The notes under the pieces are model-generated. The model worked only from the letters and a program-made list of their open reading frames with translations, searched no databases and was not told where the DNA came from. A program made the position numbers and the translations under genes. Shown in pieces: positions 1 to 11,902 of a stretch of 11,902 bases of DNA. Origin of the DNA: a virus (lineage: Duplodnaviria; Heunggongvirae; Uroviricota; Caudoviricetes); IMG/VR virus record IMGVR_UViG_2778261167_000009, one strand, 5' to 3'. Numbering within the stretch: position 1 is the stretch's first letter; each line of letters opens with the position of its first letter.

Positions 1-234
1 CTACATGTTTTCACATGACTGTTGCGTTGACCAATTGAATCTACAGGTTCGTATGTTGCGCATATCCACGCCGTTAAGCTCAATACCGTCACGGCGCATT
101 ACCTCAGCCACCACACGCGCGTAATTTTCGGCTATCACGCTGTCCGGCTGTGTAGCCTGTTCGTCAGGCTGCTGACTGATTCCGGTAATGCGGCGAATTA
201 TTTTTAGTAGATCAGTTTCAGTCATTCTCGTCAT
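1..234 (-). CDS. Hypothetical 77-aa protein immediately downstream of terL (possibly a head-completion or connector-type protein; function not recognised)
   Basis: Complete ORF; its ATG (232-234) overlaps the terL stop (231-233) in an ATGA arrangement, and its TAG stop is at 1-3. Same strand and operon as the packaging genes. Confidence 0.5.
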   Translation of the reverse strand: MTRMTETDLLKIIRRITGISQQPDEQATQPDSVIAENYARVVAEVMRRDGIELNGVDMRNIRTCRFNWSTQQSCENM

Positions 235-1892
235 ACCCCATCAAATGCCGCTAGTCGCTCTTTCTGGCTGTCGCTCATATCAAATGCAAATTCCTCATGC
301 TCAGCCTGGAATGTGCCAAACGCCATCAGCGCCGCAACGCTCGGGTCTATCTTGTTGGATGATTTTTTCTTGTTCGGCTTGATATTGGCGTTCGCGTCAC
401 TCTGCATCACAACATTACTCATTGACCAGGCCAGCACCGGATCACCACGATGCACAATCACCTTCCGGTTAACAAAAACCTCGAACGATTTCGCCGCCGG
501 ACTGAAACGAAGGTAGGTTTGAGGGAACGGCTCCACCTCAAAGCCTGCCCCCTGTAACTGCGTTCTCAGGTGCGTGGCGTTCCACGTATCAAAGCCCACC
601 AGCCTGATATTGAAATTCTCTGCATCCGCCATGATGTCATCACGGATACGGTCATAATCAATGCAGTCACCCGGTGTTGTGCGTATCCAGCCCGCCTTTG
701 CCCACTGGCGATAGATGGCGCGGTTTTTATTGGCGGGGTTCTGTAGCTGAAATTCCGGCAGATAATGACGAGAAACCAGCATAATGGTTTTACCAACCGG
801 AAAGGCATAGCACACGCTGGAGATGTCGCTTGTGGATGATAAATCAAGCCCCGCGTAACACTCCTGACCGTGTAAATCTTCCTCCGTGAACGTTCCGGCG
901 CACTCAGCCCATGCACCGTTACCCATCCACGGCGTAGCCCCCTGACACCAGATATTGAATCGCTTGGTGAGCATTTCCACCCACTGCGACGGAATACCCC
1001 GCGCTTTCTGGATGGTTGAGGCCAGTTTTTCACGATCTACGGAAACATCGATATTGGGATTCGCCTTTATCCACATCGCCGGATCGTCAACCTCGCTTTC
1101 ATCATCCAGCTCATAAATCAGAACGAACATGGATTCGTTCACCTCTTCACCATCCAGTATCTGGCAGCAATAGTCGTAGTGTTGTTTACAGGCTGAAACA
1201 ACGTTGCTCCCCGATGTGGTGATGGCAAATAACAGCCCCTCCGGGCGTGCCCCCATTCCCAGTTCAAGCGCGGAATAAACCCCGTTGTCAGGGTGCAGGT
1301 GATATTCATCCACAATGGCAAGACTCGGGTTTGTACCTTCAATGGTTGCTGCTTTTGCTGCCAGTGGCTTTAACAGACTGTTGGTTTTCGGGTGTATCAC
1401 CTTGTGTGCCTGAATATTTACCCGCTTTCGTAACGGTCGGGATAAAAGGCACATCTGACGCGCATCATCAAACACGATCCGCGCCTGATCACGACTCACG
1501 GCGGCGGTGTAAATATCCTGCTGCCCGTTTTCCATAACCAGAAACCAGTTAGCCAGGATAGCGGCGACCGTGGATTTGGCATTTTTTCGCGGTACTTCAA
1601 TGAATGCGCTGGTGTATTTGCGCCGTCCGGTGGCCTTAACCTTAAAGCCCAGGATGCACGCAAAGGCGAACTGCTGCCACGGCTCCAGCTCAATGGGGCT
1701 ACCGCGCATTGCGCCTTTTACGTGCGGACACACCCTGGAAAAGGCAATAAACCGCTCCACGACCTCCGGATCGAACGTGTAAAGGGGGTTTTCAAGGTCA
1801 GAAAAATACCGTTTAACGGCCTGTTTCAGTCGTTTACAGGCCGTAATTTTGCCGTTTTTTACGCCTTCTGCGTACTCATGCCAGGCGGTCAA
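231..1892 (-). CDS. terL: Terminase large subunit
   Basis: 553-aa translation has a typical TerL N-terminal ATPase region (KITACKRLKQAV..., IAFSRVCPHVKG, LEPWQQF) and C-terminal nuclease region. The only in-frame start before residue 61 is TTG at 1890-1892, preceded by a purine-rich SD-like stretch (GAGGAAGAGGA). It overlaps the terS 3' end by 17 nt. Confidence 0.9.
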   Translation of the reverse strand: MTAWHEYAEGVKNGKITACKRLKQAVKRYFSDLENPLYTFDPEVVERFIAFSRVCPHVKGAMRGSPIELEPWQQFAFACILGFKVKATGRRKYTSAFIEVPRKNAKSTVAAILANWFLVMENGQQDIYTAAVSRDQARIVFDDARQMCLLSRPLRKRVNIQAHKVIHPKTNSLLKPLAAKAATIEGTNPSLAIVDEYHLHPDNGVYSALELGMGARPEGLLFAITTSGSNVVSACKQHYDYCCQILDGEEVNESMFVLIYELDDESEVDDPAMWIKANPNIDVSVDREKLASTIQKARGIPSQWVEMLTKRFNIWCQGATPWMGNGAWAECAGTFTEEDLHGQECYAGLDLSSTSDISSVCYAFPVGKTIMLVSRHYLPEFQLQNPANKNRAIYRQWAKAGWIRTTPGDCIDYDRIRDDIMADAENFNIRLVGFDTWNATHLRTQLQGAGFEVEPFPQTYLRFSPAAKSFEVFVNRKVIVHRGDPVLAWSMSNVVMQSDANANIKPNKKKSSNKIDPSVAALMAFGTFQAEHEEFAFDMSDSQKERLAAFDGV

Positions 1893-2232
1893 GCTCGTCC
1901 TCTTCCTCTGTTTCCGGTGGATTTCTGCGGCGGCTTACCGGGTCAAAACCCAGCAAAGAAGCCATTTTGATCATTATTCTTTCCGCGTCAGCCTTTGCGC
2001 TCAGGGCGGGGTTTCTGCTCTCGCTGCCCTGACTGTTAACAATGCTGAACCCGCGCGTCGCAAGGTCTTCGACGGCTTTGCGGTATATGGAGTAGTTAAC
2101 ACAATACAGTTCCAGATTGCTCCAGTCGGCGGGGGTAAGGTCTTCCCGCCCGGAAAGCTGGCGCGATTTTTCCTTCCACTGCCTGACCGCGATTTCATCC
2201 AGGTAAGCGGGGGCTTTTGGTGGTCTTGCCAT
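1876..2232 (-). CDS. terS: Terminase small subunit, P27-family-like
   Basis: Translation from the ATG at 2230-2232 (MARPPKAPAYLDEIAVRQW...LELYCVNYSIYRKAVEDL...NPALSAKADAERIMIKMASLLGFDP) resembles P27-type small terminase subunits. The ORF-track extension to 2373 runs through a G-rich non-protein-like stretch and is not used. Confidence 0.8.
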   Translation of the reverse strand: MARPPKAPAYLDEIAVRQWKEKSRQLSGREDLTPADWSNLELYCVNYSIYRKAVEDLATRGFSIVNSQGSESRNPALSAKADAERIMIKMASLLGFDPVSRRRNPPETEEEDELDRLA

Positions 2233-2520
2233 GTTCTTTTTTCGCCCAATTATTTTCAAAAAAATTACCGTGCACAAAAATTTGAGGGGGCGGTCGGTGT
2301 CCGGTAGGGACGGTTTCGTCCTGAAAACCACCCCCACCCCCTCTGACGGCCTCACCAGCGATTGCGAAAACATTCCATGACCTCGCGGTCACGGTCGGTT
2401 AATCGCTTCGCTGTGGTGCGTTTTGTGCGCCCTGTCCTGTTGGCTTTGTGCTCTGTCTCCTGTGTCTTCCATGTGTCACGCTGCCTTATCAGTCCACGTA
2501 TCAGCCTGGTTTGCTCCTGT
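2233..2520. other. Candidate cos/packaging-site region between the HNH and terS genes
   Basis: 288-bp non-coding gap directly upstream of terS, containing G/C homopolymer tracts (gaggggg at 2284-2290, ccacccccaccccctc at 2327-2342), an inverted repeat gaggggg/ccccctc and a short hairpin (2307-2321). Position matches where HNH-dependent cos phages carry cos. Not verified. Confidence 0.3.
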
Positions 2521-2961
2521 TCAGTCATCATCGCCATACATCCAGTCGTTACGGTGTGCCGCCCGTTCTTCCTGCTCGCGATACATGCCCGCTTTACGGT
2601 TTGCTTTCGTGGCTGGATCTTCCCGTGTCGTCTTACGGTTGTGGCACGTCTGGCACAATGCCTGGTGATTCCACTCAGGCCAGAAGAGAACATCACCGCC
2701 GCCATTGATGGGAATGATGTGATCCACCACAAGAGCTGGTGTATAAATACCCTTAGCCAGACAACGCACGCATAACGGGTTTTTGCTCAGGTACAGGGCG
2801 CGGTATTTGTCCCACTGTCGGGAATACCCACGTGCGCGGCGGTGTCCCCGTCTGGCATCCTCTGCACGCCATGCAGCCCGCCTGTGCTCTTCACACTTGC
2901 CGGACTTCACGCGCTTATTACAGCCCGGCTCAGTGCATCGCCTTAATGGTTGCCACGGCAT
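2521..2961 (-). CDS. HNH endonuclease, packaging-associated
   Basis: 146-aa translation with cysteine pairs (CTEPGCNKRVKSGKCEEH, CVRCLAKG) and an HNH core (VVDHIIPINGGG...NHQALCQTCHNRKT). ATG at 2959-2961 shares one nucleotide with the connector stop. Located immediately upstream of terS. Confidence 0.9.
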   Translation of the reverse strand: MPWQPLRRCTEPGCNKRVKSGKCEEHRRAAWRAEDARRGHRRARGYSRQWDKYRALYLSKNPLCVRCLAKGIYTPALVVDHIIPINGGGDVLFWPEWNHQALCQTCHNRKTTREDPATKANRKAGMYREQEERAAHRNDWMYGDDD

Positions 2962-3263
2962 CAGTACACCCCCACATCACGATAAACCGACCAGAGCGCA
3001 GAAATAGCCATAGGCAGTTCCGAGTGCTCAACTGGTGAAACCGCTTCCCGGTTCTCGTACAGGAAAGCGATGTACATCAGGCAACCAACACGTATTGCCG
3101 GGGTAAATTCCAGGCCGTCTTCAAAACGTTTCCCGATATGCTTCTGGCAGGCTTCCAGCGCCGCATCGGTATATATTTGCAGAAGTTCAACCTCACCATA
3201 AAAATCATCATCAAGGCGAAGATGGGCCATTACTTCATTAAGCGTAATTCTGGATTCACTCAT
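2961..3263 (-). CDS. Head-tail connector/adaptor protein, gp6-like
   Basis: Translation from the ATG at 3261-3263 (MSESRITLNEVMAHLRLDDDFYGEVELLQIYTDAALEACQKHIGKRF...) fits the gp6-like connector pattern. RBS GGTG lies upstream. The ORF-track extension to 3350 overlaps the portal 3' end and is not used. Confidence 0.75.
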   Translation of the reverse strand: MSESRITLNEVMAHLRLDDDFYGEVELLQIYTDAALEACQKHIGKRFEDGLEFTPAIRVGCLMYIAFLYENREAVSPVEHSELPMAISALWSVYRDVGVY

Positions 3264-4470
3264 CTTTTTCACCTTTAATTTCCACAGTCTGCTTCCATGC
3301 CTGGCTGAACTCGTCACCACCTTCACGCGGCGGCATACCCTCACGCTCACGGGCTTCGTTCGGATTCATGATCCCGTTCTTAATCCCTTTCTCATACGTG
3401 GCATAACGTTCGGTGGGTGTGGCGCGTAATAAATCGGCTGAATCAAACTCAACCAGATAACGGGTACCAGGTACGGGAGAAGCCACCAGCAAAGCGGCCT
3501 TGATTTGCTGTTCGAAGTTCGCCAGCCATGGGCGCATTGTCATGGTCAGAAACGCGCGGCTTGCCTCGCTGAAATTGCTGTAGGTGCTGTTGCTGTATTC
3601 CTGCAGAAAAATAGGCGATACGTTGAACATGCGGGCGATGTCTTCAATGGAGAAGCGACGGGAGGCCAGCCATTCCGCATCCTGGTTACTCATTCCCAGT
3701 TGCTTGTAATCCATGCCCCCTTCAAGGATTGGCGTTTTTCCGGCATTTTTCGCCCCCTTGTAGCGTTCCAGAGCATCTAATGCCTGTTTACCTTTCACGC
3801 CGTCCAGCCATTCGCCTGACGTGATAATCCCTGCCGCCATCATGCCATCTTTCATAATGCTGGCTCCGTGGCGCTGTTGAGCAAGGCCAAGCCCAAGCGC
3901 CTCACGGCAAATCGTGACAGGGGAGCGCCCCAGAAAGCCATCATCCGAGGCATAGCGGAGATGCAGAACTTCTTCCTGTAAATACGTGCGCACCGTTCCT
4001 GTATAGGGTTCGGTGATGGTATAGCGGTATTTGTGTGCGCCTGTGCGTTCCGGTACAACACACCCCGGCGCATAAGGATGAAGTGATTTTGGCTGCCCGT
4101 CCTGCCCCCACTCAATAACCGCATAGGCGTTACCGTTCAGCAGGCAGTGACGCATCATTGTGCGTTTAAACTGGTAAGGTGTCTGGCACGAATTAGGCTG
4201 CTCATTCAGCAGAATATCTACCGGGTGACTGTCCAGCCATTCCCGCGCCTCCCTGCCCTTGTCATTACGTACCAGATACAGATAACACGGCATCGTGGCC
4301 ACCGCCTCAGCGATGACAGAAACCGCGTTCATCACTGCAGGCAATGATTCAGCCGTCCCGGCAGAAACATATTCTCCGGATCCGGTATTCGGTACGCCGG
4401 ACAGCGCCAGAAAATCATCAATGGACAGGTTACGCTGCTCGCTTTTTTTACGACTAAAAGGCCACCACAT
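3256..4470 (-). CDS. Portal protein, HK97 family
   Basis: About 404 aa from the ATG at 4468-4470 (MWWPFSRKKSEQRNLSIDDFLAL...), with portal-like core motifs (FSIEDIARMFNVSPIFLQEY, RPWLANFEQQ). The start lies 1 nt after the protease stop, suggesting coupling. The upstream extension to 4560 is not protein-like. Confidence 0.9.
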   Translation of the reverse strand: MWWPFSRKKSEQRNLSIDDFLALSGVPNTGSGEYVSAGTAESLPAVMNAVSVIAEAVATMPCYLYLVRNDKGREAREWLDSHPVDILLNEQPNSCQTPYQFKRTMMRHCLLNGNAYAVIEWGQDGQPKSLHPYAPGCVVPERTGAHKYRYTITEPYTGTVRTYLQEEVLHLRYASDDGFLGRSPVTICREALGLGLAQQRHGASIMKDGMMAAGIITSGEWLDGVKGKQALDALERYKGAKNAGKTPILEGGMDYKQLGMSNQDAEWLASRRFSIEDIARMFNVSPIFLQEYSNSTYSNFSEASRAFLTMTMRPWLANFEQQIKAALLVASPVPGTRYLVEFDSADLLRATPTERYATYEKGIKNGIMNPNEAREREGMPPREGGDEFSQAWKQTVEIKGEKDE

Positions 4471-4471
4471 A

Positions 4472-5032
4472 TCACAACCCCGCCAGCTCAGACCAGCGAT
4501 GGCGATTATTTCCTGTCGGACGTAATTCAGGGTGCTGTGCAAACAACGAACGGTGGGCAATCTCCACGCCAGATTCTGGATAAGCAGGCATCGACGTTAT
4601 TGTGATTTCACGGAGTTCAGCGGCGGTTACGGTACGCAAATACGGTTTTTGCGCGATACTCCACTCCTCGCATAATGCGCGAAAACCAAAGCTCATTCCT
4701 GTAATGTCGCCACGCTCCACCAGCGTAAGCACATCTTTTCCAAGCTGGGTATCCGGCGGTGTCAGTTCAAAACGTAACCCGGTGTTATCCTCAGTCAGTA
4801 CCAGAGTGCCGGATTTGGTGCGCCCCAGCAGTCGGGTATAGTCATGCTCATACAGGCAGCGCACATCATTACCCGCCGCCAGATAGTCAGCAAAAGCCCC
4901 CGGCGTGAACTGTTCGCGGAATTCGTCCCAGATAATTTCTGAAAGGCTGTTCCAGCGAACGGCATACCCCACCAGCTTTTTATTGCTGGCGGTCAGTTCA
5001 GATGTGCGGATTTCAAAATCGGTGTTTTTCAT
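4472..5032 (-). CDS. Prohead maturation protease, HK97 family (S78/U35-like)
   Basis: 186-aa translation (KKLVGYAVRWNSLSEII, FTPGAF, LYEHD, LGRTKSGTL, GDITGMSFGF). RBS GGAG sits 8 nt upstream of the ATG at 5030-5032. Confidence 0.9.
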   Translation of the reverse strand: MKNTDFEIRTSELTASNKKLVGYAVRWNSLSEIIWDEFREQFTPGAFADYLAAGNDVRCLYEHDYTRLLGRTKSGTLVLTEDNTGLRFELTPPDTQLGKDVLTLVERGDITGMSFGFRALCEEWSIAQKPYLRTVTAAELREITITSMPAYPESGVEIAHRSLFAQHPELRPTGNNRHRWSELAGL

Positions 5033-5053
5033 CGGTGTACTCCATAAAACTGA

Positions 5054-5074
5054 AAAAGGAGGCCGCAGCCTCCT
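5054..5074 (-). terminator. Terminator-like or attenuator hairpin between the capsid and protease genes
   Basis: On the minus strand: stem AGGAGGC, loop TGCG, stem GCCTCCT (plus 5057-5074), followed by a TTTT run, lying in the 54-bp gap after the major capsid stop. Could raise capsid transcript levels relative to downstream genes. Confidence 0.4.
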
Positions 5075-5086
5075 CCTTACTCATGA

Positions 5087-6256
5087 CTAGCCAGCTTTCA
5101 TTTCCAGAATTTTGATGGCGTTTGAATCCACCACACCACCGCCCAGATATTTATCCGTGTGGACCTTGTAGAATCCGGGTTCAGTAATGTTGTCCGGTCG
5201 GGTGCGAATCCCTGTTACATGATCAACGATGAAATAACCACGACTGAAATCGCCAACCGCTAGCGGTGCTTTTCCTGTGCCGATGTCCGGCATGGACTCC
5301 AAGCAGTAAACAGGACGACCAAGCAACATATCCGGCGCACCTTCTTTAAGGCTGTCGCGCCAGATATAATCGCCGTTCTCATTTTTCAGCTTCTGTAGTG
5401 TCCCTGCCGTGCCCGAGTTCATCACCCAGACGGCATTTTTGCGGTATTTCGCTTTCAGCTTGTAGAGAATGTCGATCAGTTCGTCCGCTGTAATGGCGGT
5501 TCCACTTGCCGCTACCATTTTTTCAATGGTGCCAAAAGCGCGGGTTTTGTCACTGGTCGCCGCACGGGTGTAAGCCATGAAGCCTTTCGGCTTGCCGTTA
5601 CCGTCGCCATTAACAAAATCATCCTCTTCGGTGCTGGCGAACGTGTCGGCAATTTCGGAGGATAACCAGCCCAGAATATCCACCTCTGAAAAATCTAGGA
5701 TTTCCTGCGTGGTTTTCGGGTAGGCGTAGATCGGATTCAGCTTGATGGTTACGCGTTCAATTTTCGGGGTGTTGGTTTCACTGCGTGCGCTGCCTTCTGT
5801 GCCTCGTCCTACAGTTGCGCCGCCAGTGGAAACCAGTTTCTGAAACTCATTTGATTTTGCAGTCTTCACGGTCGCGATCACGCGCATAACACTGTCATCC
5901 TGTAGCTGGCGCATGACTTCGCGATCAAGCTCAGGAATTACGGTATATCCGCCATCCCTGCCGCTGTCAGTGCTGGTGGACAGAGATCGCACATCTCCGG
6001 TTACGATGTAGTTACGCAATTCATCAGATGATAATTTCTGGATGCCCGTTCCTGGCTTGCTGCGTTCTTCATCAGCCACAGACTCGAGGCGGGAAATTTC
6101 TGTGTCGAGGGAGTCGGCTTTTGCACGCAGTTCATCAAACTGTTTGCCCTCGTCATCGTTCAGGCTGCGGTTTTCACTGTCGGCTTTTTCCAGCAGAGAT
6201 CGCATCTGGTTTTTCAGGGCGGTTTTTTGCTGGCGGAGTTCGATTAATTTCTTCAT
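5087..6256 (-). CDS. Major capsid protein, HK97 family, with N-terminal coiled-coil delta/scaffold domain
   Basis: 389-aa translation. The first ~100 residues are charged and coiled-coil-like (KKLIELRQQKTALKNQMRSLLEKADSENRSL...), followed by an HK97-type capsid core (GGYTVIPELDREVMRQL, FMAYTRAATSD, GRPVYCLESMP). Confidence 0.9.
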   Translation of the reverse strand: MKKLIELRQQKTALKNQMRSLLEKADSENRSLNDDEGKQFDELRAKADSLDTEISRLESVADEERSKPGTGIQKLSSDELRNYIVTGDVRSLSTSTDSGRDGGYTVIPELDREVMRQLQDDSVMRVIATVKTAKSNEFQKLVSTGGATVGRGTEGSARSETNTPKIERVTIKLNPIYAYPKTTQEILDFSEVDILGWLSSEIADTFASTEEDDFVNGDGNGKPKGFMAYTRAATSDKTRAFGTIEKMVAASGTAITADELIDILYKLKAKYRKNAVWVMNSGTAGTLQKLKNENGDYIWRDSLKEGAPDMLLGRPVYCLESMPDIGTGKAPLAVGDFSRGYFIVDHVTGIRTRPDNITEPGFYKVHTDKYLGGGVVDSNAIKILEMKAG

Positions 6257-6481
6257 GAAGGTTTTCTCGTATTGGTTAAGATTCAGGACGTGAAACCAAC
6301 ACGGAGGGAGCGCCGCCCGACACTCTCGGCATCTCGCAGATCAACCCGGCATCGCGCAGGGGGTCAGGCGGCATTGTGGCGGCTCACGTCTGAGTGCCAC
6401 GCTCCAACATATACATAAAAATCAGTATGTAAACACCTGTCAGTCAGACCGAACAACCACGAAAGAACACGAACAAATAAT

Positions 6482-6511
6482 TTACAAAAGAAGTAAACCA
6501 TGGCCTATTAT
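6482..6511 (+). promoter_or_regulatory. Putative sigma70 promoter for the AT-rich cargo gene
   Basis: TTACAA (6482-6487), 18-bp spacer, TATTAT (6506-6511), then RBS AAAGGA (6531-6536) and ATG at 6543. Pattern match only. Confidence 0.35.
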
Positions 6512-6542
6512 TGCTGTCTCTGACTACAACAAAGGACGCATC

Positions 6543-7049
6543 ATGAATTTAAGCGCAATGGTATACCCTGATACTTTCATAATTAATGGCGAATCATTCA
6601 GAGGTAAAAGAAACGCAAAAGAAAACAAGGTATTAATTCCATATACAAATGAACCGGAAGTAACTATTGGTCAACACATTATCCAGCGTGTCGGTAAAAA
6701 CGAGATAAATCTAAAAATTATAGATATGAAGTTGCTTCCCAATGGAACCCTCAGACAGGGAACCAATCATCCAAATATGTTGACTCTCTATATTGAAAAT
6801 ATCACGGGAAATGAACATATGACGCCAACTAAAAGTAATACATTTAACATTGGTTCAATTAGTGGTGATCAAGTGCAGATAGGTGAGCATAACCATATGC
6901 TGGTAAACATCAGCATCACTGAACTGGTTGAAAAAGTCGCTAAATCGGGGGATGTACAAGCCAAATCAGTATTAAAGCAGTTACTGGAAAACAGTACCGT
7001 TGCCAGCATTGTTGGGGCTGGCGCAAGTGCCCTAATAGGCTTACTGTAA
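6543..7049 (+). CDS. Hypothetical 168-aa protein, AT-rich cargo/moron gene; unrecognised N-terminal domain and C-terminal hydrophobic glycine-zipper-like tail
   Basis: The only long plus-strand ORF in the core, opposite to all flanking genes and visibly more AT-rich. Good RBS and its own promoter and terminator. Translation ends ...ENSTVASIVGAGASALIGLL. No family recognised. Confidence 0.7.
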   Translation: MNLSAMVYPDTFIINGESFRGKRNAKENKVLIPYTNEPEVTIGQHIIQRVGKNEINLKIIDMKLLPNGTLRQGTNHPNMLTLYIENITGNEHMTPTKSNTFNIGSISGDQVQIGEHNHMLVNISITELVEKVAKSGDVQAKSVLKQLLENSTVASIVGAGASALIGLL

Positions 7050-7051
7050 AA

Positions 7052-7086
7052 AAATGGCCTGGATTTTACCAGGCCTTTATTATTTT
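7052..7086. terminator. Bidirectional rho-independent terminator between convergent genes
   Basis: Stem GGCCTGG (7056-7062), loop ATTTTA, stem CCAGGCC (7069-7075), flanked by an A-run upstream and TTTATTATTTT downstream, so a U-tract follows the hairpin on both strands. Stop codons of the 6543-7049 gene and the 7085-7333 gene abut it. Confidence 0.6.
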
Positions 7087-7333
7087 ACCGTTTCACGGGA
7101 TCGCGCATTCTGCGCCTTATTTTCCACAGATATTCGATCATTGCTTCCACCTGCTCACGGTTGGTTGCGAAAATTTCCCCGGTCAGTGAGCTACGCAGAA
7201 AATCATGATGATCCACAAAAAACAACGCATCGGAAGAAAGCAGACGGCGATATTTTTTTGCTGTCATGGTTTCCAGATCATCAAAATCATGAAACTTTTT
7301 ATGTTGCTGGACTTCTTCAAATGTCACTGGCAT
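7085..7333 (-). CDS. Hypothetical 82-aa protein
   Basis: Translation from the ATG at 7331-7333 (MPVTFEEVQQHKKFHDFDDLETMTAKKYRRLL...), preceded by RBS AGAGGGG. The ORF-track extension to 7381 would overlap the SSB gene. No family recognised. Confidence 0.55.
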   Translation of the reverse strand: MPVTFEEVQQHKKFHDFDDLETMTAKKYRRLLSSDALFFVDHHDFLRSSLTGEIFATNREQVEAMIEYLWKIRRRMRDPVKR

Positions 7334-7349
7334 GTCCCCTCTGTTGTCG

Positions 7350-7775
7350 CTAAAACGGTATGTTGTCCCCGTACGGATCATCGTGCTGACCCGTCTGCTG
7401 TTTTGCCCTGTTCAGTGCGTCAGTCGCCTGGCTCTGCTGGCCTTTTTTGCCGTCCGGTCGCACCGTTCGCGCACTGATTACGCTGTCTGCGATAACCTGC
7501 CAGCCTTGCCGCGTTTCGCCGTTCTGGCCTGTCCACTGGCTTACCTGCATGTTACCCACCACGCTCACCAGTTCGCCTTTGTGGTGTTTTGCCAGTGCAT
7601 CGGCCTGTCTGCCAAACGCCAGAACAGAAAGCCACATCGTCACCGCACCATCATCAGCCTGACTGCATGGCAGGGGGACCGCCATACTTACCATCGCCAT
7701 TTGTGTACCCTTGCTGGTGGTCTTTAACTGTGGGTCATTTGTCAGCCGCCCGTAAGCGGCTATCTGTGCTGTCAT
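7350..7775 (-). CDS. ssb: Single-stranded DNA-binding protein (SSB-like OB-fold) with acidic C-terminal tip ...DNIPF
   Basis: 141-aa translation aligns by eye with bacterial SSB (IAAYGRLTNDPQLKTT..., WLSVLAFGRQADALAKHHKGELVSVVGNMQVSQWT...G..R) and ends DDPYGDNIPF, like the host SSB tip DDDIPF. Strong RBS GGAGGG; ATGA overlap with the upstream ORF. Confidence 0.8.
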   Translation of the reverse strand: MTAQIAAYGRLTNDPQLKTTSKGTQMAMVSMAVPLPCSQADDGAVTMWLSVLAFGRQADALAKHHKGELVSVVGNMQVSQWTGQNGETRQGWQVIADSVISARTVRPDGKKGQQSQATDALNRAKQQTGQHDDPYGDNIPF

Positions 7776-8017
7776 GATTCCATCCCTCCGGTGTTAACGT
7801 TGATGGTTGTCACCTGTTCCGCTTCGGCAATCTCCCGCTCTATCAGCGTGGCAAAATTTGCCGCCGCCGTGGTCATGAATGCGCTTATCAGTTCGGAATG
7901 TGCTTTCGCGTATCCTTCCCCGGCGTTGCGGTCGATGATTTTTATCGACACCCTTAACCAGTGTTCCGTCAAATCAAGGGCGTGCGATTGTGATTTTTTT
8001 GTGTGCTTCGCTGTCAC
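7772..8017 (-). CDS. Hypothetical 81-aa protein (GTG start), between ori and ssb
   Basis: ORF starts with GTG at 8015-8017 and has a weak SD. Its TGA overlaps the ssb ATG. No family recognised; could be shorter or non-coding. Confidence 0.35.
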   Translation of the reverse strand: MTAKHTKKSQSHALDLTEHWLRVSIKIIDRNAGEGYAKAHSELISAFMTTAAANFATLIEREIAEAEQVTTINVNTGGMES

Positions 8018-8063
8018 AGGCTTTATCTCACAGCAGTAAATTAAAATTTTTGCGTTTTAACCC

Positions 8064-8301
8064 TTCACCTGTTCACCTTTTGATATTTTCTCTTTTAATT
8101 CATAATGTTAAGGGGTGAACAGTTTCAAAAAAACTATTCACCAACTGTTCACCACTGTTCACCACTGTTCACCCTTGAAGCTCAATAAACAATCAAAAAG
8201 GTGAACAGTGAATAGTTTGGTGAACAGTTCATAAATAACTGTTCACCCTATAATATACTGATATAAAAGATATTTATGACAGGGTGAACAGTGGTGAACA
8301 G
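8064..8301. repeat. Iteron array, candidate origin of replication (P4-type TGTTCACC iterons)
   Basis: Ten exact copies of CTGTTCACC/GGTGAACAG in both orientations (8069, 8114, 8145, 8155, 8165, 8200, 8219, 8239, 8283, 8293) plus variants CTATTCACC (8134) and GTGAATAG (8208). Three are tandem at a 10-bp period (8144-8173). AT-rich spacers lie between them. Immediately 3' of the primase/helicase gene. Confidence 0.6.
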
Positions 8302-8314
8302 TTATTCCATAAGT

Positions 8315-10132
8315 TTAATTTTTGCTATCGTCATTAGTGACCGATACACATGATGGCATCCAGTCTTCTGATTCCTCCGTCAGTGTCACGTTTGAACGCA
8401 AACCGTGCTTCGTTTTCCGTTTCATATACTCCCTGCCATATTCCGCCATTGCCCCCGGCATATCTTTACCGAAGCGCGTCAGTGTTACAGGTTTACCAAA
8501 CCCATGTGCCCTCATATAAGCCAGATAGGCATGATAGAGATACCTGCGTGGGCTGAATGGCACAATTTCAGCATTACCCACTAACAGGCCATCACACATT
8601 ACCGACGCCATGAGATAGCCGCAGAAGTCCACCAGCGAATCCCCCTCTCGCTTTATCGCCAGTGCTTCTTCAGATTTCTGCTGCTCATATAACAGGCGTC
8701 TGGCTTCGTCCTGGTCAGCAAACCGTGTAAGCAGATGGCGAATCACTACCGCCAGCTCACCTTCTATTTTTTCCGCCAGCATTGGATCACGTTCGTTCTC
8801 CGGTACAACTTCCGAAAAATTGAATATCACCCGACGACGTGAGATCCCCCCGCTGCGGTCACTGAATGACATGGCGTTATTGTTAACCGCCAGCACTACT
8901 GCCGGAATACGTGTTGAGTAGGGGGCTTTGTGTTTCGGGTCAATTGCCACCTTGTCACCGCCTGTAATAGCCTTAATCCCTGCCCCATCACCAGCGTAGC
9001 GGGTCATATCCGGCATGATAATCAGCGAAAAGCCAACCACTAACGCGCGTTCCCTTGCATCTTCCAGCGCCTTCATGCTTGCCGATACTGTGTTGGCCTT
9101 ACCCGCCAGCATGGTGCAAATCTCCGCCATCACGCTTTTACCACTTCCCCCTGGACCTGTTACCTCAATGAATAACTGCCAGTCGTACCGGTTCGCCAGC
9201 ACCATGAATAATGCAGCCAGTACGCGATCCGCCTTGCGGTCATTCTCAGCCACCGAACGGCGTAACCACTTCCAGAAATTCGGCGCATGTGTTGCCAGCG
9301 TTTCCCCCTCTGCTGGTGGGCTGAAAGGTAATTCACTGGCAATTAACAACCAGTCGTTTTTGTTATGCTCCCGAAAATTACCTGTTCTGGTATCAAATAC
9401 CCCGTTACTGAATCCAATCAGGTTACGGGCTGTATTCCCCATTACAGGCAAACTTAACTTCATGGTATCGACCGCTGATTTAATAGCGTTCTGTGAATAG
9501 CTGATCTCCGCATCAATGAAAATCTGCGCCATAGCACGCTGTAACTCTTTATCCTGAACCGGCTCCCATACAACGCCGTTGTAATGGTGAACAGTGTCAG
9601 AGTCAGCATGAATCGCCAGTTCACCACCATAATGTGCCAGGAGAACTTCGCCGCGTTGACTTGCTCCCATCTGGTTAAGCGCCAGTGATGAAGCGTTATC
9701 GTCTTTTACCCGCTCTTTTTTCTTTACAGGCAGTTCAACTACCTTTTTCTTTTCCGCCAGCTCTCCCCGCTCACGCTCCAGATATTCGCGCCAGTTCTCC
9801 CGTTTCTGGCTGTGCATTCCTTCAGGGTAATAATCAGCATCCCTGACACCTGCCGCTGCCAGTTTCTGCCCGATGGTATTAACAAGCACCGGACGCAATA
9901 ACCCCGCCTGATAGAGACGCACGCGATAGCGTCCGTCCGGTACGATTTGCAGGTTGTCCAGTTCGGCAAGTTGTTGCTCTCCAAGCCAGACAGGTGGCAC
10001 GTTATCGCCTGCCAGTCGCCCGTCCTGTTCCTGCCACTGCTTCGCATGTGCCCACGCATCACTACCCGCAAAAATGATGACTTCCGTCATTTTGTCACGC
10101 GGCTGGTGTTTTAAATTTGGCGCTTTTTTCAT
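8315..10132 (-). CDS. Replication protein: P4 alpha-like primase/helicase (D5-N-like domain plus SF3-type P-loop NTPase)
   Basis: About 605 aa from the ATG at 10130-10132 (MKKAPNL...) with RBS GGAGAGAG. Walker A VTGPGGSGKS, Walker B-like LIIMPD, and a D5-N-like central region (NLIGFSNGVFDTRTGNFREH). The ATG overlaps the upstream ORF stop (ATGA). The ORF-track start at 10147 is GTG. Confidence 0.9.
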   Translation of the reverse strand: MKKAPNLKHQPRDKMTEVIIFAGSDAWAHAKQWQEQDGRLAGDNVPPVWLGEQQLAELDNLQIVPDGRYRVRLYQAGLLRPVLVNTIGQKLAAAGVRDADYYPEGMHSQKRENWREYLERERGELAEKKKVVELPVKKKERVKDDNASSLALNQMGASQRGEVLLAHYGGELAIHADSDTVHHYNGVVWEPVQDKELQRAMAQIFIDAEISYSQNAIKSAVDTMKLSLPVMGNTARNLIGFSNGVFDTRTGNFREHNKNDWLLIASELPFSPPAEGETLATHAPNFWKWLRRSVAENDRKADRVLAALFMVLANRYDWQLFIEVTGPGGSGKSVMAEICTMLAGKANTVSASMKALEDARERALVVGFSLIIMPDMTRYAGDGAGIKAITGGDKVAIDPKHKAPYSTRIPAVVLAVNNNAMSFSDRSGGISRRRVIFNFSEVVPENERDPMLAEKIEGELAVVIRHLLTRFADQDEARRLLYEQQKSEEALAIKREGDSLVDFCGYLMASVMCDGLLVGNAEIVPFSPRRYLYHAYLAYMRAHGFGKPVTLTRFGKDMPGAMAEYGREYMKRKTKHGLRSNVTLTEESEDWMPSCVSVTNDDSKN

Positions 10133-10428
10133 TTCTGCTCTCTCCACGCGGCAATCATGTTTTTCAGTTCCTGTAGTTTTTTATCCACATCCACACGTGA
10201 CACATGGTTATTTCTGGAAGGCGGTATTTCCCGCCGGAATCTGCAAATAAAGATCTCCACGTTCAGCGAGCTATGAAATGAATAGCCATCACGAATAAAG
10301 TACACACGGTCAAACATTATCGATTTTACTGTTACTCTGTTGCCGTTCTTATCCCGATAAATAGCGCCGGGGATAATTTTGGGATGTGCATAACCGCTGG
10401 CAGTCAAGCCAGATAAATACGTTCTCAT
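10129..10428 (-). CDS. Hypothetical 99-aa protein, translationally coupled to the primase/helicase
   Basis: Complete ORF with ATG at 10426-10428 and RBS GGGGA; TGA overlaps the primase ATG. No family recognised. Confidence 0.6.
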   Translation of the reverse strand: MRTYLSGLTASGYAHPKIIPGAIYRDKNGNRVTVKSIMFDRVYFIRDGYSFHSSLNVEIFICRFRREIPPSRNNHVSRVDVDKKLQELKNMIAAWREQK

Positions 10429-10434
10429 GATTAT

Positions 10435-10755
10435 TTATCCCCGATTTGAATCAGTATTCGCTTTCTTTATGGCATTTAATGCATCTGTGGCATTTTCAAT
10501 GGTGCACCGTAACGAAATATCAAAATGTCCAAGCATTGCCAGTAACAAACCGATATTACCCATATCAATGCGCATGGCCTTTTCGTCATATTCCTCATTT
10601 TCTGACGCATGCCACATCAGGCTACCAATTGACGCAACAGCCATTGATATATTGTCAGTAGCCCCATCCGCAGCGGAATAAACCTTTTTAGCAATATCAT
10701 GCTCACAGTTAAAATGCGGATTAATCAGGTACTGGTAATTTGACATATCAGGCAT
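10435..10755 (-). CDS. Hypothetical 106-aa protein
   Basis: Complete ORF with ATG at 10753-10755 and RBS AGGGGG; AT-rich. No family recognised. Confidence 0.6.
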   Translation of the reverse strand: MPDMSNYQYLINPHFNCEHDIAKKVYSAADGATDNISMAVASIGSLMWHASENEEYDEKAMRIDMGNIGLLLAMLGHFDISLRCTIENATDALNAIKKANTDSNRG

Positions 10756-10951
10756 GGCACACCCCCTGACGAATACGGGCGGCGAATACCATCACGCAGC
10801 CAGCCGGGGATTGCTGGCGTGCTTCCTGTTCGCTGGTGGCCACGATGTGAATCACGCGCGGTTGTGCCGTGCTCAGGGCGATAAAACGCCAGATGAATTT
10901 ATTCAGGTTGTGCGAGTCCCGCCCTTGCGGGTGTGTGGTATGATTTAACAT
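10748..10951 (-). CDS. Candidate 67-aa first gene of the leftward operon
   Basis: This is the C-terminal in-frame part of the spurious 306-aa ORF. ATG at 10949-10951 is preceded by GAGGT; stop at 10748-10750 overlaps the next gene start. Translation MLNHTTHPQGRDSHNLNKFIWRFIALSTAQPRVIHIVATSEQEARQQ... is plausible but unrecognised. Confidence 0.35.
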   Translation of the reverse strand: MLNHTTHPQGRDSHNLNKFIWRFIALSTAQPRVIHIVATSEQEARQQSPAGCVMVFAARIRQGVCHA

Positions 10952-11047
10952 AGCTACCTCGATACTTCTGCTATCGTTGGTGGTTAGAAGCCCGGTTAGT
11001 GTTAGCGCACTGCCGGGTTTCGTCGTTTCTGCACCTTGCATCAACAA

Positions 11048-11100
11048 GGTGTTAAACACCAATTTAAGCCTAGGTGTTAAACACGTCAAGTGTTGAACAC
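11048..11100. promoter_or_regulatory. Three palindromic operator-like sites overlapping a putative promoter for the plus-strand small-gene module
   Basis: GGTGTTAAACACC (11048-11060), GGTGTTAAACACG (11073-11085), GTGTTGAACAC (11090-11100). The last overlaps a -35-like TTGAAC (11093-11098), with 17-bp spacer and -10-like CATACT (11116-11121). GGTTAG direct repeats lie upstream (10982, 10994, 11000). Confidence 0.45.
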
Positions 11101-11150
11101 TTATTTTTTTTCCTGCATACTGCATTTGTTTTTTGTAAGGAGTACACAAC

Positions 11151-11330
11151 ATGGCGACAAAAGCAGTAAACGCAAAATCACAAACAGTTGCGGCAAGGGT
11201 TCCGCATGAAGTTATGAACAATGTTGAGGCGGTAAAAATGCCTGGTGAAAGTACAGGGCAGTTTGTAACAGCAGCATTAAAGCGAGAAGTTGAATACCGC
11301 CAGCATCGCAAGGCCAAAGAGCAGGAGTAA
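11151..11330 (+). CDS. Arc/MetJ-like ribbon-helix-helix DNA-binding protein, 59 aa
   Basis: Below the ORF-track size cutoff. Strong RBS AAGGAG (11137-11142) 8 nt before the ATG. Translation MATKAVNAKSQTVAARVPHEVMNNVEAVKMPGESTGQFVTAALKREVEYRQHRKAKEQE has a beta-strand then two helices in the RHH pattern. Confidence 0.6.
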   Translation: MATKAVNAKSQTVAARVPHEVMNNVEAVKMPGESTGQFVTAALKREVEYRQHRKAKEQE

Positions 11331-11387
11331 CCATCACCAGCGCCGTGGTGCGGTGAACTGTGGCGCACAGGGTTACAGGTATCTACG

Positions 11388-11567
11388 ATGACTGACAAAT
11401 CATTAAAGAAATTATCCTCATCCAAGAAAAAACAACGCAAAAATGCGGTAAACGAACATGAACCGGAGAGATTCGCACCATGTGCGTTTATCCTTGAGAA
11501 GTACCTTAAAGAGTATTCTAGGAAAATACGCTCATTGCAGGCATGGCAGCGAATCGAGCCAGACTGA
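11388..11567 (+). CDS. Hypothetical small basic protein, 59 aa
   Basis: Below the ORF-track cutoff. ATG at 11388 with weak SD (AGGT); translation MTDKSLKKLSSSKKKQRKNAVNEHEPERFAPCAFILEKYLKEYSRKIRSLQAWQRIEPD. Lies between the RHH gene and the plus-strand terminator. Confidence 0.4.
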   Translation: MTDKSLKKLSSSKKKQRKNAVNEHEPERFAPCAFILEKYLKEYSRKIRSLQAWQRIEPD

Positions 11568-11631
11568 TAGCATTGCCCACTAGCCGACAACCTGGTATTC
11601 TGGATATGCTCAAGTTTAGTGTTATGCCACT

Positions 11632-11660
11632 GGCGACCGCCCCCGGTCGCCTTTGTTTTA
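11632..11660 (+). terminator. Rho-independent terminator ending the plus-strand small-gene module
   Basis: Stem GGCGACCG, loop CCCC, stem CGGTCGCC (11632-11651), followed by TTTGTTTTA. It sits inside the 306-aa minus-strand ORF, arguing that ORF is not real. Confidence 0.6.
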
Positions 11661-11677
11661 TGTGTCATAGCTCCCCC

Positions 11678-11902
11678 CTAGGCTGCCTTACCTGAATTAA
11701 CGCGGTCACGGCTTTGCACCCAGTCCATAACTTCGGAAAGCAACCAGCCTACAGAACGCCCCCCAAGATTACGGCGAGACGGAAAGCCCCCTTTCTTCTC
11801 CAGTTCGTAGCGTGTAGTACGGCTGACGCCTGTTAACTTACGACATTCATCCTCACGAATTACGCGATCTGTTAGTGATTGAAATTGTGTATTTTGATTC
11901 AT
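11678..11902 (-). CDS. alpA: AlpA-family phage regulatory protein (winged-HTH activator/excisionase-like)
   Basis: 74-aa translation (IREDECRKLTGVSRTTRYELEKKGGFPSRRNLGGRSVGWLLSEVMDWVQSR) matches the AlpA pattern. The ATG is at the window edge, so the RBS and any upstream integrase are not visible. Confidence 0.85.
   Translation of the reverse strand: MNQNTQFQSLTDRVIREDECRKLTGVSRTTRYELEKKGGFPSRRNLGGRSVGWLLSEVMDWVQSRDRVNSGKAA

Follow-up and report, generated by a model that had tools for sequence, protein, structure and literature searches.

An Escherichia coli island of the capsid-forming PICI type that lacks a head closure gene

The stretch of DNA analysed here (11,902 nt; IMG/VR record IMGVR_UViG_2778261167_000009), referred to at its full length as the window, contains a set of head and packaging genes together with an AlpA gene and a replication module. 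The window very probably represents the stretch from AlpA to terL in an E. coli island of the capsid-forming phage-inducible chromosomal type (cf-PICI) and covers about 80% of this ca. 15.0-kb island. Domains were assigned by profile searches with Pfam, PHROGs and NCBIfam, and PADLOC was also run on a cargo gene encoding a 168-aa protein. All real genes of the window but two are carried on the minus strand. The AlpA protein, major capsid protein, protease, portal protein, gp6-like connector, HNH protein, TerS and TerL listed in an initial annotation, which had been made from the sequence alone, were each detected by these searches. Comparison loci are designated L001, L002 and so on where they need to be told apart.

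Head and packaging functions are encoded throughout on the minus strand, by genes for an HK97-fold major capsid protein (MCP; 5087..6256; PF05065, E=3.5e-71), an HK97-type prohead serine protease of the S78 family (4472..5032; PF04586, E=1e-45), a portal protein (3256..4470; PF04860, E=6e-93), a gp6-like head-tail connector of the Ad1 adaptor class (2961..3263; PF05135, phrog_40 and TIGR01560, E=2.5e-20), an HNH endonuclease of the packaging module (2521..2961; PF01844; phrog_144, E=4e-45), a 61-aa protein (2352..2537; phrog_3173), the small terminase TerS of the P27 family (1876..2232; PF05119, E=4e-23) and the large terminase TerL (231..1892; TerL_ATPase and TerL_nuclease). The start of terS was set according to RefSeq homologues, and a longer open reading frame (ORF) from 2373 is possible. 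The 61-aa protein is, by position and sequence, the orthologue of hypothetical gene 1792 of EcCIEDL933, the prototype cf-PICI of E. coli O157:H7; this equivalence was obtained by counting genes from capsid=1786.

The MCP matched the T=4 capsid of EcCIEDL933 (PDB 9GYI) with 63% identity (E=1.7e-155). It keeps five residues of EcCIEDL933 that have been tested by mutation, as well as the 22-residue loop that distinguishes EcCIEDL933 from HK97. Mutating these five residues lowered or abolished the transfer of EcCIEDL933 (Alqurainy et al., bioRxiv 10.1101/2022.09.08.507074; He et al., bioRxiv 10.1101/2025.02.11.637232). In a collection of 50,697 phage records, an MCP more than 60% identical to that of the window was found only in records that were satellite-sized or fragmentary and in one 106-kb record, and the MCPs of tailed phages were at most 37% identical to it. 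Two records with this head module appear to be cf-PICIs entered as phages, namely 'Escherichia phage vB_KppS-Ant' (16.5 kb) and 'Pasteurella phage Pmp8' (15.3 kb). In the 106-kb 'Klebsiella phage P12620-1', the module lies at the extreme end of the record, a possible assembly chimera (records LR881103.1, OR544139.1 and PQ569648.1, P12620-1 included).

HK97-like phages of the HNH type have their cos between the HNH-side genes and terS. By its position only, a non-coding gap of 119 bp upstream of terS in the window (2233..2351, minus strand) was annotated as a candidate cos or terminase recognition region. This gap is ca. 80% identical to that of the EcCIEDL933 type, compared with 83-87% identity in the flanks, and it contains a G-tract with an imperfect inverted repeat. 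Its predicted fold exceeds that of shuffles by a modest margin only (z=-2.3).

The replication module includes genes for a 605-aa replication initiator/helicase (8315..10132, minus strand; D5_N, DUF5906 and Pox_D5), which has a P4-alpha-like SF3 helicase and an origin-binding domain, and for a single-stranded DNA-binding protein (SSB; 7350..7775, minus strand; PF00436, E=1e-16). Repeat analysis placed the replication origin at 8069..8301, where 12 iterons, 11 exact copies and 1 near copy of GGTGAACAG, occur in both orientations in a 250-bp AT-rich gap downstream of the replication gene. There were 17 matches to GGTGAACAG in the whole window against 2.4 expected, and none of 200 shuffles reached 17. 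Phage P4 has the same octamer as the iteron core, TGTTCACC, annotated in its genome as 'ori type 1 repeat'; ori and crr of P4 hold 11 copies of it, the expectation being 0.36. With residues 290-771 of P4 alpha the replication protein shares 48% identity, and in its C-terminal domain it matches the origin-binding domain of P4 alpha, for which there is a solved structure (1KA8, E=1.8e-24). The likeness to P4 alpha begins at residue ca. 113 and covers the helicase and the origin-binding domain, and the first ca. 112 residues gave no alignment to the primase domain of P4 alpha. The initial annotation had described a P4 alpha-type primase/helicase with an iteron origin; the helicase, the origin-binding domain and the iterons agree with this description, whereas the label 'primase' is unproven because the N-terminal ca. 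112 residues do not align with the alpha primase domain. At the end of the window, the AlpA gene (11678..11902, minus strand; PF05930, E=4.8e-16; phrog_2790) encodes a helix-turn-helix protein of the regulator/excisionase type.

The boundaries of the island were obtained from other assemblies. The 77-aa protein encoded at the beginning of the window was found on contig NTPA01000031.1 (GCA_002463585.1), and the window begins 31 bases from the end of this contig. Two contigs, L005 (GCA_003298705.1) and L006, match the window at 100% identity, and the match extends to the junction with an insertion sequence (IS) described below. Beyond AlpA, L005 contains a DUF6387 gene, a tyrosine integrase gene and then rcnR. 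The integrase (406 aa; Arm-DNA-bind_3 and Phage_integrase; phrog_1, E=1e-65) is encoded ca. 1 kb beyond AlpA and thus outside the window. In the complete E. coli genomes TUM12357 (98.7% identity) and SMS-3-5 (97.5%), the element lies between thiM and rcnR, and thiM is located ca. 700 bp past the last island gene. Alignment to K-12 revealed a 14-bp attachment (att) repeat, ATACGGGTATTTCT, at both island junctions and as a single copy in the empty K-12 site. The size from att to att is 15,025 bp in TUM12357 and 15,142 bp in SMS-3-5. The att site is intergenic, and the window contains no tRNA gene. In the favoured explanation, the tyrosine integrase that the island encodes inserted it at this 14-bp site, with thiM on one side and rcnR on the other.

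The RefSeq annotation of the whole island in TUM12357 and SMS-3-5 lists no gene for tails, lysis or CI-type immunity, and tail, holin and lysin families gave no match among the island genes in Pfam and PHROGs. The initial annotation had noted the absence of tail, lysis and lysogeny-repressor genes from the window and had proposed that the flanks be inspected for an integrase, att repeats and tail genes. Its view holds for the 15.0-kb element, in which no tail or lysis match and no CI-type repressor was found, and the flanks proved to contain the integrase (in L005) and the 14-bp att repeats, with no tail genes inside the island in the complete genomes. Of 5,426 complete E. coli genomes, 534 had the head module, in every case in the chromosome. 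These carriers fell into three bands of identity, with 111 at 95% or more, 45 at 80-90% and 378 at 60-80%.

The last island gene is disrupted in the window. Bases 1..45 of the window, together with the next 31 bases, at which the source contig stops, are the end of IS30H (100% identity over 76 nt to elements annotated as IS30-like IS30H). All E. coli homologues, including those in the 25 best-matching complete genomes, part from the window exactly at position 46. The insertion removes the last 31 codons (residues 63-93) of a gene for a 93-aa protein and puts 15 IS-derived codons in their place, so that the gene at 1..234 (minus strand; phrog_1561, E=7e-33, residues 4-63) encodes a 77-aa chimera of the 93-aa protein and IS30H sequence. 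The 77-aa gene does reach base 1 of the window, as the initial annotation had stated, but it is truncated by IS30H and not simply cut by the window edge. Intact 93-aa orthologues were found in L001, L002, the EcCIEDL933 type (72% identity) and L004, a PICI described below; the 93-aa gene is presumably functional because it has been kept in EcCIEDL933-type islands and in that PICI. The same IS30H junction is present in three assemblies (L003 at 10190-10265, L005 and L006), where it coincides with contig ends. The IS30H allele appears to be clonal, since at least three assemblies have it in common.

It is known that cf-PICIs are 10-18 kb in size, have an integrase, regulation and replication modules and an exclusive packaging module, and have neither lytic genes nor a complete tail module (Alqurainy et al., bioRxiv 10.1101/2022.09.08.507074; He et al., bioRxiv 10.1101/2025.02.11.637232). 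The published gene order in proteobacterial cf-PICIs is capsid-protease-portal-head connectors followed by hnh-terS-terL (bioRxiv 10.1101/2022.09.08.507074). The island agrees with this definition in its size between att repeats, its terminal integrase, its AlpA and replication module and the order of its packaging genes, and neither a tail module nor lysis genes were found among all its genes. On the other hand, it does not have both of the head-tail joining genes, which He et al. call 'adaptor' and 'connector'. Under the published SatelliteFinder model, this absence does not exclude the island from the cf-PICIs, because SatelliteFinder accepts as 'Type B' those with 10 of the 11 core markers (459 of 969 elements; the missing marker is unnamed in the text). 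The capsid-forming PICI-type element proposed in the initial annotation is supported by the integrase, the att repeats, the absence of tail and lysis genes, and the gene order and orthology shared with EcCIEDL933. That annotation had noted neither the lack of a head closure gene nor the insertion of IS30H, nor that the family is common and has been described before. The family was described in 2022-2023 and has been catalogued in about a thousand genomes, and its members build a small capsid of their own and are said to steal 'only tails'. The island is an uncharacterised member of this known and widespread family, and it provides a clean and well-bounded example in which the att site, the origin, the packaging module and a cargo gene are mapped.

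The stopper-less architecture is the single feature of the island worth an experiment. In an EcCIEDL933-type island (L013) and a ZH063-type island (L015), two genes lie between the portal and HNH genes, one encoding a 112-aa head closure protein, or stopper (TIGR01563, gp16_SPP1, E=7.7e-15), and the other a gp6-like connector. In the window, the gp6-like connector gene is the only head-tail joining gene, and there is no room for a head closure gene because the portal stop overlaps the connector start. In a tblastn search with the head closure protein, L002 and L005 gave nothing, and the matches obtained in other sequences were at chance level, with one in the window itself (E=2.8) and two in the chromosomal flank of L001 (E>0.5). 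In the nine-gene packaging module of EcCIEDL933, every single-gene mutation abolished transfer, except that of hypothetical gene 1792 (Alqurainy et al., bioRxiv 10.1101/2022.09.08.507074; He et al., bioRxiv 10.1101/2025.02.11.637232). No paper linking cf-PICIs to a missing head closure gene was found in the literature that was searched.

One explanation is that the island is a cf-PICI by descent that no longer works, the loss of the stopper and the insertion of IS30H having left a chromosomal relic unable to form heads that are stable and competent for tails. The gene that is missing belongs to the module whose mutants, gene 1792 apart, abolished transfer in EcCIEDL933. In addition, IS30H truncates a conserved last gene. 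An IS30 element is ca. 1.2 kb long and hence would lengthen by a similar amount, to a predicted 16.2 kb or so, a genome matched to a small capsid, so that the window's own copy may be impaired or oversized for its capsid. However, this insertion is limited to one clone (L003, L005 and L006) and is absent from the 25 best-matching complete genomes, and the stopper-less layout is far more widely distributed. It occurs in about 156 of the 534 E. coli carriers of the head module (ca. 29%), a figure derived from the DNA-identity bands (95% or more, and 80-90%) with the layout sampled in TUM12357, SMS-3-5 and KFu019. The island of KFu019, which belongs to the 80-90% band, is also without the head closure gene, and has another integrase and another insertion site.

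The layout was further compared in 80 related loci from other species, of which 70 were scorable. The distance from portal to HNH was bimodal. Most loci had ca. 630-660 bp with both genes, and three with 723-1,124 bp still had both, whereas in 10 of the 70 the distance was 267-374 bp and only the connector was present. These ten loci are from Xenorhabdus (2), Symbiopectobacterium (2), Pantoea (2), Yersinia, Leclercia, Erwinia and Gilliamella. In neighbour-joining trees of the connector and the portal protein, stopper-less elements occupied about eight separate places, which indicates that the stopper-less state arose repeatedly. Furthermore, within the stopper-less clade all seven packaging genes have intact ORFs with no stop codons, and their ratios of nonsynonymous to synonymous substitution (dN/dS) are 0.00-0.31. 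This is unlike the evolution of a relic, and, as an argument from selection, it suggests that the module still functions. Taken with the recurrence of the layout in E. coli and in other genera, these values make a defunct relic unlikely, though it is the most serious of the alternatives.

Candidates for a replacement of the stopper were sought by gene-family enrichment, which yielded no convincing one; spurious antisense ORFs, and the close kinship of the four copies from E. coli, made up most of the signal. The one real gene enriched in stopper-less elements was that for the 106-aa early protein of the island (9 of 14 versus 11 of 72), but this was confounded by relatedness and the protein is implausible as a stopper. 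In Symbiopectobacterium, a 141-aa ORF follows the HNH gene (L069, 11951-12376; L070, 8173-8598) and is remotely similar (25% identity) to head closure proteins, which suggests relocation or replacement of the head closure gene; the window has nothing comparable after its HNH gene. In Xenorhabdus sp. TCT-1 (L062, 9989-11455), the portal and the gp6-like connector form one ORF, either by natural fusion or through a sequencing frameshift.

The KFu019 island bears on the source of the missing protein. The HK97-like prophage that flanks this island encodes portal, capsid, connector and head closure proteins of its own, the last of which is 52-64% identical to its counterparts in cf-PICIs. It is therefore plausible that a stopper is borrowed from the helper. 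The KFu019 cf-PICI itself (L014, 4265-20972) splits the terL gene of the prophage, and the repeat at its junctions is imperfect (ca. 17 nt). In the stopper-less islands, the stopper as well as the tail would probably be taken from the helper.

Based on these observations, we tentatively suggest, at somewhat less than even confidence, that the island belongs to a recurrent sub-class of cf-PICIs that has no stopper of its own and keeps the whole head and packaging module under purifying selection; if transfer-competent, such elements would use a helper stopper or a stopper-free way of joining. The adaptor/connector pair has been shown to set the tail compatibility of cf-PICIs and thereby their spread across species (He et al., bioRxiv 10.1101/2025.02.11.637232). 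If a stopper-less sub-class does exist, its tail-less capsids would not be autonomous DNA-retaining particles of the kind described for KpCIDSM30104 and EcCIEDL933, and its helper range would be set at the connector-stopper interface and not at the stopper-tail interface. A selected stopper-less lineage would show a second, more dependent mode of piracy and would offer a genetic test of which neck interface is the deciding one.

By homology with EcCIEDL933, the cycle of the island as a cf-PICI may be pictured as follows. A resident HK97-like helper phage with HNH and cos packaging would switch on alpA. The island would then be excised by its integrase and replicate from the iteron origin with the alpha-like helicase and SSB. 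Its own capsid protein, protease and portal protein would build small heads, probably of T=4 and ca. 47 nm, and its own HNH-TerS-TerL would cut and package island DNA, probably at a cos upstream of terS. The filled heads would finally receive helper tails via the gp6-like connector.

Several points weigh against this picture. The mechanism cannot be identical to that of EcCIEDL933, because nowhere in the island is there a head closure gene. It is from EcCIEDL933 that induction, small capsids, tail hijacking and the identity of the helper are all inferred, and the placement of cos in the 119-bp gap is a guess from its position. Induction by a helper, small capsids made by the island and reliance on helper tails have been shown for EcCIEDL933 only; for the present island they have indirect support from the 63% MCP identity and the conserved essential residues. 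The replication protein is, as judged by alignment, without the primase domain of P4 alpha. Furthermore, the thiM-side end of the window's own copy is beyond view, as the assemblies break at IS30H, and the last gene of this copy contains that element.

It is very improbable that the window derives from a normal or remnant HK97-like prophage with tail and lysis genes that were deleted or are located beyond the window. The head and packaging genes are of the phage type, and the source contig ends near terL, so that the window alone is silent on tail genes beyond it. In the complete genomes, however, the att repeat closes the element at 15.0 kb, with thiM a short distance past its last gene, and the att-bounded element contains none of the tail, lysis and immunity modules of a complete temperate prophage. 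Moreover, its left module (int, alpA, the alpha-like protein and the iterons) is of the PICI type and 98.7% identical to that of a non-capsid-forming PICI at the same att site, the MCP identity to tailed phages never exceeds 37%, and the same compact layout recurs in many genera. Still less probable is a P4-like satellite that redirects the capsid assembly of its helper rather than making its own capsid: the AlpA protein, the alpha-type replication protein and the shared iteron octamer would fit such a satellite, but searches of the island genes with Pfam and PHROGs detected no Sid, Psu, Delta or Epsilon homologue, the island has its own MCP, protease, portal protein and TerL, which P4 lacks, and P4 uses P2-type helpers, not HNH-cos phages. 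The MCP also matches the capsid protein of the RcGTA gene transfer agent, and a gene transfer agent was rejected in view of the integrase, att sites, origin and HNH-cos-type packaging genes.

A control region separates two divergent genes, one encoding an Icd-like small protein (10748..10951, minus strand; NF033153, E=5e-20; phrog_6196) and the other, one of the two on the plus strand, a small protein of the YlcI/YnfO family (11151..11330; NF041551, E=2e-16). The Icd-like protein matches a PHROG labelled 'transcriptional repressor', and its NCBIfam label is cell-division-inhibitor-like. Three copies of AGGTGTTAAACAC (11047..11100) lie between these genes and are a candidate operator for a regulator of the island. 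A 306-aa ORF called over the control region in the public assembly L005 (10748-11668, minus strand) overlaps the real small genes, gave zero matches and is almost certainly spurious. The minus strand also encodes a DUF4222 protein (10129..10428; PF13973, E=2e-18) and three proteins with no assigned function, namely the 106-aa protein mentioned above (10435..10755; phrog_15327), an 81-aa protein (7772..8017; phrog_1231) and an 82-aa protein (7085..7333; phrog_1957), the last of which is 45% identical to the product of an EcCIEDL933-type gene.

The cargo gene (6543..7049, plus strand) is low in GC (37%) and encodes the 168-aa protein, which matched phrog_5789 only; Pfam, NCBIfam and PADLOC gave no match. 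Its homologues form 98 clusters and are spread over the Gammaproteobacteria (Enterobacterales, Pseudomonas, Shewanella and Xanthomonas), where they are located elsewhere in prophage cargo spots. A Pseudomonas homologue lies in the cargo spot of a P2-like prophage beside a HEPN protein, and a role in defence is only suggested by this neighbourhood. In an AlphaFold2 model of the 168-aa protein (pLDDT 77), an N-terminal beta-barrel is followed by a disordered linker and then by helices at the C-terminus, and none of the fold matches to the model was significant.

Among known systems, the island resembles satellite phage P4 in its alpha-like replication protein with an origin-binding domain, in the TGTTCACC core of its iterons and in AlpA, a family that includes ORF88 of P4. 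It differs from P4 in having no sid, psu, delta, epsilon, cI or alpha primase domain and in having its own capsid and terminase genes. With the HK97-like phages HK97, HK106 and HK022, it shares an HK97-fold MCP, an S78 protease, a portal protein, a gp6-like connector, an HNH protein, a P27-family TerS and a TerL. Unlike these phages, it is without tail, lysis, immunity and head closure genes, has about one third of their genome size, and shows a permuted order in which the capsid genes precede the terminase genes.

The closest likeness is to EcCIEDL933, which is also ca. 15 kb in size. Both islands have the order int, alpA, Icd-like gene, DUF4222 gene, replication protein gene, ori, SSB gene, capsid, protease, portal, connector, HNH, a small hypothetical gene, terS, terL and the gene for the 93-aa protein. 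The amino acid identities to the EcCIEDL933-type island of an O157:H7 genome (L013) were 94% for TerL, 88% for TerS, 84% for HNH, 81% for the portal protein, 77% for the 61-aa protein (60 aa in L013), 64% for the MCP, 62% for the protease, 58% for the connector, 67% for the integrase and 69% for AlpA. The comparison of capsid, portal protein and TerL proposed in the initial annotation thus places all three as orthologues of EcCIEDL933 proteins, the capsid matching 9GYI as well. Of the nine packaging genes of EcCIEDL933, all but the head closure gene, which lies there between the portal and connector genes, have orthologues of 58-94% identity in the same order in the window. The island further differs from EcCIEDL933 in its att site (thiM|rcnR versus phoQ|roxA), in its replication protein (P4-alpha-like with D5_N/DUF5906 versus DUF927, homologous over ca. 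140 residues only) and in its cargo, with the plus-strand gene for the 168-aa protein in the place of PerC; in the window's copy, the last gene moreover contains IS30H.

The SatelliteFinder model for PICIs treats the portal and the head-tail connector/adaptor as 'forbidden' and terL as a core gene specific to cf-PICIs. The island has a portal, a head-tail connector and terL and is thus not a classical PICI of the EcCICFT073 type. A PICI at the same thiM|rcnR att site (L004; GCA_054471895.1, 8231-15745) is nevertheless 98.7% identical to positions 7996-11902 of the window on the int-DUF6387-alpA-replication side, the control region included. Its packaging region encodes a 637-aa fusion of a ClpP-type protease with a capsid protein, a DUF1441 TerS-like protein and the 93-aa protein, and has no full set of capsid, portal and TerL genes. 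It has already been noted in the literature that the left part of cf-PICIs can equal that of PICIs, and the comparison of L004 with the island shows a classical PICI and a cf-PICI to have swapped a module.

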